Assembly (NCBI GenBank): GCA_050950825.1
Contig: JBMNIH010000002.1
Location: 224,001-288,000, forward strand
Direction: 5' to 3'
Origin: Clostridia bacterium
Lineage (GTDB): Bacteria > Bacillota > Clostridia > JAAYHZ01
DNA length: 64,000 nt
The notes beneath the pieces are model-generated. The model saw only the letters and a list, made by a program, of their open reading frames with translations. It was not told the DNA's origin and searched no databases. Shown piece by piece: positions 18,200 to 35,623 of the stretch; within the stretch, counting starts at the first letter, position 1, and each line of letters begins with the position of its first letter. The position numbers and the translations under genes were made by a program.

Positions 18200-18284
18200 T
18201 GGTGGAGGAAGGTGGATTCGAACCACCGAAGGCACTGCCAACAGATTTACAGTCTGCCCCCTTTGGCCGCTCGGGAATTCCTCC
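18200..18284 (-). tRNA. tRNA-Tyr(GTA)
   Basis: GGAGGAATTCCCGAGCGGCCAAAGGGGGCAGACTGTAAATCTG...GTTCGAATCC...ACCA; long variable arm. Confidence 0.97.
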
Positions 18285-18287
18285 GTA

Positions 18288-18363
18288 TGGAGCTGGTGGA
18301 CGGATTCGAACCCCCGACCTGCTGATTACAAATCAGCTGCTCTACCTGCTGAGCTACACCAGC
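18288..18363 (-). tRNA. tRNA-Thr(TGT)
   Basis: GCTGGTGTAGCTCAG...CTGATTTGTAATCAG...TTCGAATCC..CCA. Confidence 0.97.
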
Positions 18364-18378
18364 ACTTTTTTAAAAAAA

Positions 18379-18455
18379 TGGCGACCCGGAAGGGACTCGA
18401 ACCCTCGACCTCCAGCGTGACAGGCTGGCATTCTAACCGACTGAACTACCGGGCC
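18379..18455 (-). tRNA. tRNA-Asp(GTC)
   Basis: GGCCCGGTAGTTCAG...CCTGTCACGC...GTTCGAGTCCC..CCA. Confidence 0.97.
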
Positions 18456-18459
18456 GTGT

Positions 18460-18534
18460 TGGTGACCCATAGGGGATTCGAACCCCTGTTACCGCCGTGA
18501 AAGGGCGATGTCTTAACCACTTGACCAATGGGCC
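18460..18534 (-). tRNA. tRNA-Glu(TTC)
   Basis: GGCCCATTGGTCAAG...CCCTTTCACGG...GTTCGAATCCCC..CCA. Confidence 0.97.
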
Positions 18535-18567
18535 ATTTTTCGTCGTTCGGAACACGACGCATTGTTT

Positions 18568-18596
18568 ATTTTAACTGCCTCCATCTTTATTGTCAA
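18568..18596 (-). promoter_or_regulatory. Sigma-A promoter TTGACA-17-TAAAAT for tRNA-Glu-Asp-Thr-Tyr
   Basis: Near-consensus hexamers with a 17-bp spacer. Confidence 0.8.
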
Positions 18597-18641
18597 GTGC
18601 TTTTTCATCGATCCGTTCGATTTTTGTTTTGGAGAGCAGTT

Positions 18642-18717
18642 TGGTGAGCCATCGGGGGTTCGAACCCCGGACCCCATGATTAAAAGTCATGTGCTCTACC
18701 TGCTGAGCTAATGGCTC
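18642..18717 (-). tRNA. tRNA-Lys(TTT)
   Basis: GAGCCATTAGCTCAG...GACTTTTAATC...GTTCGAACCCC..CCA. Confidence 0.97.
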
Positions 18718-32228: not shown

Positions 32229-32990
32229 TCAGTAGATATTGATGCCGCTGAAAATCTCGATCATTTCTTTCCGCAATACATTCGTAATTCTTAGCCTTTC
32301 CTTCGGGGGTATTTCGTATACATCGACGTTAAAGAGGTAGTTCTGCAAGTCGATTTCCTTGATCAAAGCTTTCGTATGGAATATATTGGACTGGTACACG
32401 TTAATATCGATCATATCATATTTTTGCAATATGTCTTCGGAAATGAAATCTTGGATGGATGTTATTTTATGATCGATAAAAATCTTCTTGCCTTCTACGT
32501 CGCGGGTAAATCCTCGAACACGATAATCCATGGTGATGATATCCGAATCAAAGCTTCCGATAAGAAAATCCAACGTGGACAAAGGTGTGATTTTACCGCA
32601 GGTGGAAACATCGATATCCACTCGGAAGGTCGCAACGGAATTGTCGGGATGATACTCCGGATACGTATGGACGGTGATATGGCTTTTATCCAAATGGGCA
32701 GCGACGGTGTCTTTTACCGGAGGAATCTTCGGTTCTTCGGAAATGAGGACGGTGACACTGGCCCCTTGGGGCTCGTAATCCTGCAAAGAAACATTCAGTA
32801 CGGTGGCTCCGATCATATCCGTAAGCTTTAAAAGAATGTTTTTTAGCCGCTCCGAATTGTATTGCTCGTCAATGTAAGCAATATAATCCCTTTGCTCCTG
32901 CTGCGTTTTGGCATAGCAAATATCGTAAATATTGAAGCTTAATGTTTTTGTTAAGTTATTAAATCCGTACAGTTTGATTTTGTTGTTCAT
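32229..32990 (-). CDS. speD: S-adenosylmethionine decarboxylase proenzyme (E. coli-type class 1A)
   Basis: [39 protein letters not shown] (K/S cleavage site) and DVSTCG; conserved start MNNK at 32990. Confidence 0.93.
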
Positions 32991-33137
32991 GATCGTCGGG
33001 TTTAATCGATACAAACACGAAAGCCTGCATCCGGCCCTTTCGTATTCGTCCATCGATTAACCGGGAATCTCACCGCCTTTCTGTAGTAATAAAAAATCAA
33101 GTTGCTTATGCGCTTCAAGCTTTGTAAAAGGTGATAC

Positions 33138-33170
33138 AAAAAAAGTGTGTCGCTACAGTCGGCAACACAC
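33138..33170 (-). terminator. Attenuator terminator in the speD leader
   Basis: GUGUGUUGC-8 nt-GCGACACAC followed by U7. Confidence 0.8.
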
Positions 33171-33240
33171 CCGTGATAGATATCGTAATTGTAGAAGACG
33201 ACGCAGCGCCTTCCTTGCCGTTTTTTAAACGGGCAATCGT

Positions 33241-33460
33241 CAGAGCATTTTAGTAAGAACTACCTTAACTACTCTTATTGACCTTTTCACAAGTGTGTAC
33301 CGCTGTACACGTTTACGGTTTATAGTAACCAACTTATAAAATTCGAGCGTATGCTCAATCAATAATGCAGCTATCGCTGCAGCGGCAGTCGACCCGGCTG
33401 TCCGTTAGCCTTTTACCCTTCGGGCGGTCATTCTTACTACAATGCATTTATGTCTGCATC
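33241..33460 (-). ncRNA. Large structured cis-regulatory RNA (probable ldcC motif, riboswitch candidate)
   Basis: Nested stems read by eye (see findings); lies between the promoter and a terminator, upstream of polyamine genes. Confidence 0.75.
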
Positions 33461-33476
33461 GTTCGGGAATGGAACG

Positions 33477-33505
33477 AGTTTAGCACGTTCACCCTCCCTT
33501 GTCAA
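33477..33505 (-). promoter_or_regulatory. Sigma-A promoter TTGACA-17-(TG)TAAACT of the polyamine operon
   Basis: -35 at 33505-33500; extended -10 at 33482-33477. Confidence 0.78.
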
Positions 33506-33527
33506 CATATTTCATCTATATATATTA

Positions 33528-34754
33528 TTATATGAAAAACACCCCGCCCGGTTCATATATGTATTTTCCGCTTAAATAGTGCCGTTTTATACTTCTTTCC
33601 AAAGTCGTTCTTTCCGGCAAATCCTCCAAACGCTCGTATCGATCAAAAAAGACAAAGGTTATGGCTCCTCTGCCGCTGCTGTAGGTCGGAAAACGCATGT
33701 ATTTATTCTGAAACGTTACGATGTTGGAGTCCGGCGGCAGCATGTCGGCCAGCTGCGGGTCCATCAACCACGAAAAGCATACAAATGCTTTAAACCGGAA
33801 TTCGGGAAAGCATTTCGAAATAACCTCCGCCGACCTTTTGTAGGATTCTTCGCACAGTTCGGGAGTCAATTTTTCACCGGCCGGGATATGAACGCTGAGG
33901 ACAGGATCTTCGGGACTTAGCACAATACGCCAATCGGATACGGGAAGCTTGGTCCTTTCTTTTAATGCGCGACCGTTCTTCCCTACAAGATGGCCTTCGA
34001 AATATTCTTCCGTTTGAACAAAGCTTGCATCAAAGGATCCCTCATCGTCTTCATACCCCGGAATACCTAAAACCATACCGTCCCTGTGGAGTCTTACGCC
34101 GGTCATCATCATAAGCCGTTCGCCCTTTTGGTTTTCCAACACGTAAACAGGACCTTTAAACATGGAGCGCATTTCGATGTTCAATCGCCCTACGCGCAAA
34201 ATGGTTACGTCGATATACCGCTGGATCCAATTAAAATATCGTTTATCAAAGCCGTATCGGTCCGTTTTCCTTTTGTAACCTTTTAAGCATTCTTCGTAAG
34301 CCGTATGGGTGGCAAAGCGAATATCCGTGGGCACACCCCGCTCTTTCAGCACGGAATCGATTCGAGGAATTTTGGATAGCAAGGTAAAAAGCAGTGCAAA
34401 GTCATACGGCGCAGGGTCTTCTCCCGGAGAAAAAGAAGGAACCTCCAAAGCGCCTATTTCCCTTTTGAAAGACTCCCGATCCTCCATAGCCAAGTCAAGA
34501 AGCAGAATATACTGCATAAGCTCAGGAAAGCTTTTTAATTTTTCCGCCGCATCCAAAACCTCATCCAGCGTATTATCGAAAAGCCTGTACTTTTCATGAA
34601 GCTCCAATATATACTCTCGGCCGGGATAGATACCTCCGTAGCCTACAAAGCTTTCTTTTAGCCTTTCGTTAAAAAGGTTCCATCGATCGGGATAACCGGA
34701 GATCTTCAGCTTTTTCATCAACTCTTCTACGGAATTTACCATGTTGATTGCCAT
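33528..34754 (-). CDS. GNAT-like acyltransferase-domain protein (DUF5596-like)
   Basis: GRLNIE, LSVHIPAG, FVCFSWLMDPQL, SNIVTFQ and TTLER motifs. Confidence 0.65.
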   Translation of the reverse strand: MAINMVNSVEELMKKLKISGYPDRWNLFNERLKESFVGYGGIYPGREYILELHEKYRLFDNTLDEVLDAAEKLKSFPELMQYILLLDLAMEDRESFKREIGALEVPSFSPGEDPAPYDFALLFTLLSKIPRIDSVLKERGVPTDIRFATHTAYEECLKGYKRKTDRYGFDKRYFNWIQRYIDVTILRVGRLNIEMRSMFKGPVYVLENQKGERLMMMTGVRLHRDGMVLGIPGYEDDEGSFDASFVQTEEYFEGHLVGKNGRALKERTKLPVSDWRIVLSPEDPVLSVHIPAGEKLTPELCEESYKRSAEVISKCFPEFRFKAFVCFSWLMDPQLADMLPPDSNIVTFQNKYMRFPTYSSGRGAITFVFFDRYERLEDLPERTTLERSIKRHYLSGKYIYEPGGVFFI

Positions 34755-34768
34755 ACCTTACCTTCCTT

Positions 34769-35623
34769 TTACCACATCCGATTCCATTCTTCGTTAAAAC
34801 GAAGACTTTCTTCTTCGTTTTTTAATATACGCAGAACATTTACGGCCCGGTCTACCGCCATTTGGGTGTAAGCCTTTCCAATCCTCTCGTTTACGTTTAA
34901 GGGAGGGTCTCCCGCATAGGAGTTAGGATAATCCGCGTTCCAAAAATGGGCGGTGTATATTCCCGCTTTCGTCAAATGATCAAATCTTTTCGTAGAAGCG
35001 CTGCTTTCCGCTTCGTACTTGTCCGTTCGAACCAGCTCCGGATAGGTGCCCAGCATTCCCGCCGTTTCGCAAAAACCCCCGTGTTCGTCGGTTTTCTTTT
35101 TTACAACGTAATCGTTTAAAATATCCAAATCCTCCCGGGTTAAATAGGAGAACCTCTCTTTATTTTCTTGAATGACCTTCAGCATATACGACGGATGCAA
35201 AAGATTGTTGAAGAACGTGTAGACCACGTAATCCTTTTTCCTATAAAGGGTCGTACGAATGAAATTATTCAAAAAAGCGATATTCCCTCCGTGACCGTTA
35301 AACAAAAGAATTTTCTTAAACCCGTTTCGGGCAATCTCATCGCACAATTCCGTCATCAACGAAAGGAGCAGCCCGCCGCTTAAAATAACGGAGCCCTTGT
35401 GTTGATGCAAGCCTTGGATGTCGCCGAAATAAAAGCAGGGAAATACGCAAACCGGTTCGATTTCCGAAGCCGTTTCCAAAACCTTATTTGCTTCCAATGT
35501 ATCGGTTCCGACCGGCAGATGCTGCCCGTGCTTTTCAAGGCATCCGACGGCCATTGCACAGACCCCTTTGGATATTTTTATGGCATCATCAAATTCTTCT
35601 TCCCTCAAATACGCCCACAACAT
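34769..35623 (-). CDS. Creatininase-family amidohydrolase
   Basis: GCLEKHGQHLPVGTD, NGHGGN and HGGFCET motifs. Confidence 0.85.
   Translation of the reverse strand: MLWAYLREEEFDDAIKISKGVCAMAVGCLEKHGQHLPVGTDTLEANKVLETASEIEPVCVFPCFYFGDIQGLHQHKGSVILSGGLLLSLMTELCDEIARNGFKKILLFNGHGGNIAFLNNFIRTTLYRKKDYVVYTFFNNLLHPSYMLKVIQENKERFSYLTREDLDILNDYVVKKKTDEHGGFCETAGMLGTYPELVRTDKYEAESSASTKRFDHLTKAGIYTAHFWNADYPNSYAGDPPLNVNERIGKAYTQMAVDRAVNVLRILKNEEESLRFNEEWNRMW

Follow-up and report, generated by a model that had tools for sequence, protein, structure and literature searches.

The ldcC RNA upstream of a clostridial speD-led operon is one arm of a larger structured leader, which probably acts as a polyamine-responsive transcription attenuator

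A stretch of 64,000 nucleotides (nt) from a Clostridia bacterium (GenBank assembly GCA_050950825.1, contig JBMNIH010000002.1, positions 224,001 to 288,000), referred to below as the window, contains a leader RNA of about 330 nt. All elements are read on the minus strand, and coordinates are window positions. The leader lies downstream of a promoter-like site and upstream of a six-gene polyamine operon headed by speD, and it carries a terminator at its 3' end. It includes a copy of the catalogued ldcC motif. In our assessment it is probable (roughly 60%) that the full ldcC RNA attenuates transcription of the speD-led operon in cis, namely as an off-switch whose core is most likely held by a polyamine.

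According to the proposed mechanism, a transcript starting at about 33470 would fold such that an outer helix, P1, encloses the ldcC three-way junction and a core of five helices, A to E. As long as the folded core is kept closed, most likely through binding of a polyamine, segment 33298-33288 would stay within helices E and C. With this segment sequestered, the terminator at 33172-33143 would form and the operon would be off. Without this closure, the nascent 5' arm of the terminator (33175-33165) would pair with 33298-33288, no terminator would form, and RNA polymerase would read into speD. A ligand-held core would thus favour termination, because the folded core hides the competing strand; this off-logic fits, because all controlled genes make or import polyamines. 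Direct binding of the effector to the RNA, its nature as a small molecule and the direction of the switch are inferred. The ligand is most likely a polyamine, with spermidine as the first guess.

An ldcC-type RNA had been proposed in a preliminary description made from the DNA letters alone. The Rfam search (Rfam 15) bears this out: RF02440 (SpF59 sRNA / ldcC RNA) matches 33430-33382 on the minus strand with 43.8 bits, which is above the gathering cut-off of 37.2. The match extends over the full 54-position model (positions 1-54) and lies in the 5' untranslated region (5' UTR) of a decarboxylase gene. No other Rfam family was found at E<=10 within 32900-33700. The RNA in the window is an ordinary member of this known orphan family. 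Weinberg et al. (2017; PMC5737381) described the ldcC motif as a hairpin with a bulge and a possible pseudoknot of invariant nucleotides, located it in 5' UTRs of arginine, ornithine and S-adenosylmethionine (SAM) decarboxylase genes and of potA, and suggested a role in polyamine homeostasis. The leader shares with it the conserved letters, the gene classes, the suspected role and the lack of a reported ligand. In contrast to the published 54-nt hairpin with a bulge, the motif forms here a three-way junction, which makes up the 5' quarter of a P1-closed RNA of about 200 nt. RF02440 was present in 6 of 61 genomes (relatives of this genome, itself counted), and all six copies continue into a near-identical stretch outside the Rfam model. 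The 54-nt model covers only this 5' subdomain, about a quarter of the RNA.

The comparison of about 120 related loci revealed a multi-helix RNA of about 200 nt that is closed by P1 and is about four times as large as the catalogued motif. P1 encloses two units. One is the junction of P2, P2a and P2b; the other is a tail/linker helix that itself encloses hairpin P3 and a 3' domain. The elements outside the 3' domain are the following.

33445-33430 pairing with 33260-33245, minus strand: P1, 5' strand GCAUUGUAGUAAGAAU (sequence read, minimum-energy fold, covariation).
33430-33382, minus strand: ldcC subdomain, a three-way junction of P2 and two hairpins followed by the tail ACUGCCG (RF02440 match).
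33429-33426 with 33394-33391, minus strand: P2, GACC/GGUC (sequence read, covariation).
33425-33415, minus strand: P2a hairpin, GCCC/GGGU (sequence read, covariation).
33410-33396, minus strand: P2b hairpin, GGCU/AGCC, with a conserved loop (sequence read, covariation).
33387-33384 with 33264-33261, minus strand: tail/linker helix, tail UGCC with GGUA (covariation).
33381-33366, minus strand: variable hairpin P3, UGCAGC GAUA GCUGCA (sequence read).
33246-33241, minus strand: GCUCUG, family consensus ACUCU (family comparison).

All helices named in the preliminary description, including P1, the junction hairpins, helices A to E, a spacer hairpin X and the terminator, were found in the sequence where it had placed them. 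The large multi-junction fold that it had drawn from them holds almost helix for helix in the related loci. The minimum-energy fold of region 33480-33130 (351 nt) has -113.5 kcal/mol, compared to -90.1 +/- 4.65 kcal/mol for 100 dinucleotide shuffles (z = -5.03), none of which was as good. P1, helices A, B, C, D and E, hairpin X and the terminator are all part of this fold. In P1, 15 of the 16 positions pair, with a single G/A mismatch. P3 is present in every locus with a differing sequence, and some loci have two hairpins at this site. The pairing ACUGCC/GGUAGU (33389-33384 with 33264-33259) comprises four exclusive pairs, since its last two bases can pair within P1 as well. Two partners are possible for the conserved ACUCU that follows P1, namely an AGAGU in the 5' leader, which would extend P1, or the core's own AGAGU; all letters concerned are invariant. 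In loci whose leader begins right at P2 (L008, L009, L019 and others), only a local AGAGU/ACUCU hairpin is possible.

Covariation, whose lack would have spoken against a functional fold, was found for P1, P2, P2a, the tail/linker helix and helices B, D and E. Scripts compared cognate with non-cognate duplexes for the antiterminator, for P1 and for the tail/linker helix; the 5' strands of P1 vary too much in length for fixed alignment columns. Within the 22 nt preceding P2, cognate P1 duplexes have a mean energy of -10.5 kcal/mol compared to -8.0 kcal/mol for non-cognate ones (n = 77), and none of 10,000 permutations was as good. In wider windows the values are -21.7 and -17.3 kcal/mol; the cognate partner beats all eight random partners in 39 of 95 loci and the median partner in 71 of 95. 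Linkers of the GCGU type occur with 8 of 10 ACGCC tails and with 0 of 72 UGCC tails. The pseudoknot letters suggested in 2017 do not vary; the 3' tail of the motif was found to pair, with covariation, with the linker beyond the 3' domain, which may or may not be that pseudoknot. The flanking pair of P2 and P2a are changed on both sides in 14-18 of 41 sequences, at four pairs. The conserved block ACGGACAGCCGGGUC at 33405-33391 corresponds, in the alignment to the model, to the 3' bulge block of RF02440, and the bulge itself forms a covarying hairpin. This hairpin, P2b, is kept as GCC/GGC, GCCC/GGGC or CGCC/GGCG in five variants (L084, L096, L072, L089 and L070); the Rfam "bulge" is therefore a hairpin and the motif a three-way junction. 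Of the 79 distinct full-length sequences, 41 with lengths between 222 and 246 nt were aligned with MAFFT, six aberrant ones being set aside, and RNAalifold recovered P2, P2a, A, B and C from this alignment. From these 41 sequences it did not recover P1, D and E, and it proposed the local AGAGU/ACUCU hairpin, which consists of invariant letters. A CGG/CCG mini-hairpin, likewise made of invariant letters, was rejected, as variants keep GGC/GCC instead.

The largest conserved part of the RNA lies outside the Rfam model. It consists of these elements.

33365-33271, minus strand: conserved 3' domain of 95 nt, without an Rfam family (covariance model R1, 100.4 bits).
33365-33357 with 33283-33275, minus strand: helix A, UUAUUGAUU with GGUCAAUAA (sequence read, minimum-energy fold).
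33356-33353 with 33348-33345, minus strand: helix B, GAGC/GCUC (sequence read, minimum-energy fold, covariation).
33340-33332 with 33294-33286, minus strand: helix C, UUUAUAAGU with ACUUGUGAA (sequence read, minimum-energy fold).
33330-33327 with 33320-33317, minus strand: helix D, GGUU/AACC (sequence read, minimum-energy fold, covariation).
33310-33305 with 33300-33295, minus strand: helix E, GUGUAC/GUACAC (sequence read, minimum-energy fold, covariation).
33274-33271, minus strand: invariant GAGU (family comparison).

The covariance model R1 was built on the 3' domain alone and has 96 positions and helices A, B and C. With 99 loci aligned to R1, pairing is found in 98.9% of the pair cells, compared to 35-48% with slid partners, and all three pairs of helix B are changed on both sides (11 cells). 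By eye, helix D occurs as GGUU/AACC, GAUU/AAUC, GGCC/GGCC, GGCU/AGCC and GGCA/UGCC, and the pairing of helix E varies by genus, nearly every genus being different. Short 3' domains without helices D and E were seen in L026, L033, L084 and L149, the last of which also lacks helix B.

R1 matches were found in 20 of 151 genomes sampled from the same class. An exact 24-nt pattern from the 3' end of the domain occurs in at least 120 species records. Those listed include, among Clostridia, Oscillospiraceae, Lachnospiraceae, Blautia, Acetivibrio and others, among Bacilli, Priestia, Paenibacillus, Brevibacillus, Neobacillus and Weizmannia, and furthermore Acidaminococcus and Acetobacterium. R1 matches 99 of the 100 loci collected, the remaining one being incomplete at its upstream end. 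Loci ascertained by RF02440 were sampled from the phylum (5 of 151 genomes), from the Bacilli class around genome G298 (11 of 151) and from relatives of this genome. R1 follows just downstream in 22 of these 22 loci, or in 18 of 18 if only independent ones are counted, three of the 22 being from genomes picked via the 3' pattern and one being a duplicate. The reverse does not hold: among the 98 loci with enough upstream sequence, RF02440 searches miss 14. Nineteen loci lack the strict regular expression (regex) for the core; RF02440 matches five of them and, at E<=1, none of the other 14. In eight loci (L029, L067, L068, L069, L079, L091, L106 and L017), P1 is followed directly by hairpin P3 and then the 3' domain, without an ldcC subdomain. 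Because RF02440 loci always carry R1 and the reverse fails, the 3' domain is, as judged by sequence comparison, the constant core of the RNA, and the ldcC motif an accessory, dispensable arm. By the same comparison, the leader has the conserved, covarying, predicted aptamer structure that is expected of a riboswitch.

The elements of the putative expression platform are located as follows.

33172-33138, minus strand: intrinsic terminator, an 11-pair stem at 33172-33143 with a U-run at 33144-33138 (minimum-energy fold, terminator scan; hairpin -14.7 kcal/mol).
33236-33194, minus strand: spacer hairpins X (33236-33215) and Y (33213-33194), both in the minimum-energy fold.
33298-33288, minus strand: antiterminator strand 1, ACACACUUGUG, the end of the 3' arm of helix E and the start of the 3' strand of helix C (duplex energy, family test).
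33175-33165, minus strand: antiterminator strand 2, CACGGGUGUGU, the 5' arm of the terminator and the bases just before it (duplex energy, family test).

The leader thus ends in an intrinsic terminator, as had been noticed beforehand, and in 98 of 100 related loci a script identified a terminator-like hairpin, its calls being uncurated and in some cases wrong. The spacer is variable: the terminator lies 42-207 nt beyond the 3' domain, and the number and sequence of the intervening hairpins differ between loci. Segment 33298-33288 can pair with 33175-33165 over 11 base pairs at -21.0 kcal/mol, compared to -14.7 kcal/mol for the terminator hairpin. The sister species, a relative of the same genus (G001), retains this pairing at -19.5 kcal/mol. 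For the family test, a 20-nt aptamer segment (10 variable nt plus ACUUGUGAAA) was paired with terminator arms. The mean energy is -12.0 kcal/mol with the locus's own arm, -9.9 kcal/mol with arms of other loci and -5.9 kcal/mol with shuffled arms; none of 10,000 permutations was as good as the own arms, and -10 kcal/mol or better is reached in 65 of 92 loci compared to 7.6% of shuffles. The variable 11 nt before ACUUGU covary with the arm even when taken alone (-6.17 versus -5.06 kcal/mol, 0 of 10,000 permutations). Furthermore, the motif CA[AG]G[UC] is present in 64 of 92 terminator 5' arms, compared to 5.3% of shuffled arms and, for generic terminator-like hairpins from the same genome, 19 of 491. 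It is complementary to the invariant start of the 3' strand of helix C, and a shared 5'-arm motif is unusual for terminators. Among the 491 hairpins, an energy of -18.9 kcal/mol with the aptamer segment is reached only by that of the leader; generic hairpins have a mean of -6.6 kcal/mol (standard deviation 2.8). The divergent locus L149 keeps the competition in other letters, CACGCUU with AAGCGUG (by eye). Computationally, the 5' arm of the terminator hence appears to compete with helices E and C in a conserved and covarying manner, as would be expected of an expression platform.

The start of the transcript was considered together with the available RNA data.

33505-33477, minus strand: promoter-like site, TTGACA, 17 nt and an extended -10 box TG-n-TAAACT (consensus scan, 10 of 12 matches plus TG).

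With this site, transcription is likely to start near 33470, which agrees with the start implied by the preliminary description; a TTGACA-type box lies at a similar distance in related loci (by eye). In coded metatranscriptome runs, several contigs cover the leader; one stops at 33149, and another spans 33519-33136 and ends two bases beyond the U-run. No contig bridging the terminator was present in the four metatranscriptome runs, where the uncovered stretches vary by run and carry no weight as evidence. The two contig ends, which come from two coded studies, are a weak hint that the terminator is in use. Since one RNA contig runs from the upstream neighbours into the leader, read-through from these genes is possible. 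The leader is a single copy in the genome. Two other explanations of the conserved stretch were dropped, namely a leader peptide, as the core has stops in all frames and invariant third positions (by eye), and a mobile repeat, as the genome holds only one copy.

The genes downstream connect the RNA to polyamines.

33053-26722, minus strand: six-gene polyamine operon (open reading frame (ORF) finder, Pfam).

A polyamine operon below the leader had been assumed from the outset, and Pfam assigned all six genes. Genes 1-3 code for SpeD (AdoMet_dc, 3.5e-15), an Orn/Lys/Arg decarboxylase (OKR_DC_1) and spermidine synthase, genes 4-6 for an arginase-family agmatinase, a saccharopine-dehydrogenase-type enzyme and an Orn/DAP/Arg decarboxylase-type enzyme. 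Judging from their Pfam families, the last two are probably carboxyspermidine dehydrogenase and carboxyspermidine decarboxylase. Both spermidine routes would then be united in one operon, the aminopropyl route with speD and speE and the carboxyspermidine route with this pair, next to arginine decarboxylase and agmatinase. In the 100 loci, N-terminal motifs assign the first downstream gene to speD (30 loci), Orn/Lys/Arg decarboxylase (29), potA (25) or a saccharopine-dehydrogenase type that probably codes for carboxyspermidine dehydrogenase (13), and leave it unassigned in three. Pfam was applied to eight of the 100 first ORFs, namely six class representatives and two of the three unassigned ones; it confirmed the classes and identified the two unassigned ORFs as ABC_tran, while the third unassigned locus is incomplete. 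By motif, the RNA lies directly upstream of polyamine genes on the same strand in 97 of 100 loci. No polyamine export or degradation gene was seen among the first downstream genes; all assigned classes make or import polyamines. As to the loci without the ldcC subdomain, three precede speD (L017, L068, L069) and three an Orn/Arg decarboxylase gene (L029, L067, L091), by motif; the gene that follows L079 codes for an ABC-transporter ATPase domain (Pfam), and L106 is incomplete. None of the 16 loci without the regex core (these eight included) was assigned potA or the dehydrogenase, the numbers being small and confounded by lineage. L149 precedes a gene resembling arginase-family agmatinase (by eye).

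Cobalamin, lysine and tandem glycine riboswitches comprise 150-250 nt, have a multi-helix junction closed by P1, and lack a peripheral element in some members. The leader RNA resembles them in its size, its P1-closed junction and its dispensable peripheral element. In contrast, no similarity of sequence or model was detected, and the switching strand here belongs to the inner helices C and E instead of P1.

Polyamines are near-universal and abundant. One rare polyamine riboswitch class has been validated, the spermidine riboswitch, a SAM-I variant with 13 representatives for which binding was shown (Salvail, Balaji, Roth and Breaker 2023, PMC10853860). It shares with the leader the types of genes (speE, speB, lysine/arginine decarboxylases), the phylum and the off-logic via a terminator and antiterminator; by analogy, this would be in line with the switch direction proposed above. 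The folds are unrelated, as the leader lacks the SAM-I architecture (RF02440 is its sole Rfam match at E<=10). The classes differ furthermore in abundance, 13 representatives as opposed to at least 120 species records, and ligand binding has been shown for the spermidine riboswitch only.

The preliminary description had located the switch elsewhere, with hairpin X (33236-33215) as an anti-antiterminator whose CGGCAA (33220-33215) can alternatively pair with UUGCCG (33165-33160) in the terminator. This pairing of six base pairs does exist, and it is part of the minimum-energy fold of a transcript cut before the 3' arm of the terminator. As a switch it found no support: the duplex has only -10.1 kcal/mol compared to -21.0 kcal/mol for pairing of the E/C segment with the terminator arm, and forcing the respective pairings yields folds of -100.0 and -103.6 kcal/mol. 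The sister species has hairpin X with an enlarged loop, but no counterpart of the pairing (both by eye), and spacer hairpins vary in number and sequence between loci. We regard this platform as improbable; in this species the CGGCAA/UUGCCG pairing may provide some local fine-tuning. It is even harder to believe that the terminated leader is a stand-alone small RNA (sRNA) acting in trans and that its position is incidental. The name SpF59 sRNA and the typing of the family as an sRNA gene in Rfam point this way, and RNA contigs ending at the terminator would also fit a stable short transcript. Terminated riboswitch leaders are, however, commonly detected as sRNAs, and the same-strand location upstream of polyamine genes in 97 of 100 loci, the single genomic copy and the covariation of the terminator arm with the aptamer argue for a function in cis.

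With the cis-acting attenuator retained, the nature of the effector has to be weighed. The same fold and the same competition with the terminator could serve a macromolecule, either an RNA-binding protein that responds to polyamines or a universal factor, be it the ribosome, RNA polymerase or a transfer RNA (tRNA). We consider this unlikely but worth serious attention, as no ligand for the ldcC motif was found in the literature searched, nine years after its description, and the long invariant single-stranded stretches of this large RNA (such as the loop within 33406-33400 and the linker that follows 33271) are possible protein contacts. On the other hand, the core is preserved almost letter for letter in Bacilli, Clostridia and Negativicutes and before four gene classes, which would demand an equally universal partner; no conserved regulator was seen as a neighbour in the flanks inspected, in a search that was not systematic; and the missing ligand would be explained equally well if only the 54-nt motif was assayed. 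A riboswitch that senses an intermediate or by-product, such as agmatine, putrescine, decarboxylated SAM (dcSAM) or methylthioadenosine (MTA), or a general load of polycations or Mg2+, seems to us rather doubtful. Several compounds are plausible signals, given that the controlled genes span arginine decarboxylase, both spermidine routes and an importer. The factor common to potA-type importers and to the aminopropyl and carboxyspermidine routes, which share the RNA, is nevertheless the end product. For the validated spermidine class, termination was unaffected by SAM and MTA, from which its authors conclude that both, and probably dcSAM, are excluded as signals (PMC10853860); for the leader this is an argument by analogy.

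Several observations weigh against a polyamine-controlled attenuator. The terminator state is already the minimum without a ligand (-111.4 kcal/mol compared to -103.6 kcal/mol with the antiterminator forced). Because the energy model prefers this state, the switch must be kinetic or rest on tertiary structure to which the folding program is blind. The antiterminator, with the 3' strand of P1 and two hairpins inside it, spans about 110 nt, a long distance for a riboswitch, and in 27 of 92 loci the cognate duplex is weaker than -10 kcal/mol, some of these being miscalled terminators. Helices A and C show one-sided changes only (U-G to U-A or C-G), which is partly due to the scan pattern that fixed their 3' strands. 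The permutation tests for P1 and the antiterminator ignore relatedness, so that their p-values overstate the support. All support is computational. Finally, for a motif published in 2017, the literature searched yielded no ligand, which is compatible with an effector that is not a metabolite.

The ldcC family as such was known as an orphan; the value of the present comparison lies in its true size, its core and its switch. It shows an RNA about four times as large as the motif on record, a constant core outside the Rfam model and a terminator 5' arm that competes with an inner helix of this core. A full-text search found no paper on a ligand for the ldcC motif or on the enlarged architecture; the supplementary alignment of 2017 and most subscription journals were outside its coverage. 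The larger size may explain the missing ligand, if only the truncated motif was assayed. At slightly less than even odds, the full RNA of about 200 nt would be the main polyamine (spermidine) riboswitch of Bacillota, with the 3' domain as its ligand-sensing core and the 54-nt motif as an accessory arm that some lineages have dropped. The comparison yields exact construct boundaries and point mutations for a test of binding and termination, and it annotates part of the window as the control region of a six-gene operon with both spermidine routes.

Some features of the surroundings were noted in addition. The start of speD is ambiguous: the ORF finder chose the ATG at 33053 (274 amino acids), and the ATG at 32990, where the N-termini of homologues begin, suggests itself as the true start. 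Neither ATG has a well-placed Shine-Dalgarno sequence (by eye). Between the terminator and the likely start of speD lies a strong, long hairpin (32995-33075, minus strand; GGUUAAUCGAU with AUCGAUUAAACC). Region 33140-32985 folds at -41.8 kcal/mol, and the hairpin is unique in the genome. It is absent from the sister species, where the terminator is directly followed by the ribosome-binding site and speD. The hairpin could be a second, translational layer of control or the remnant of an insertion. Upstream of the leader, at 33528-35623 (minus strand), a GNAT_C/NAT_N acyltransferase-like protein and a creatininase-family protein are encoded (Pfam). A cluster of five tRNA genes is located at 18203-18717 (minus strand).

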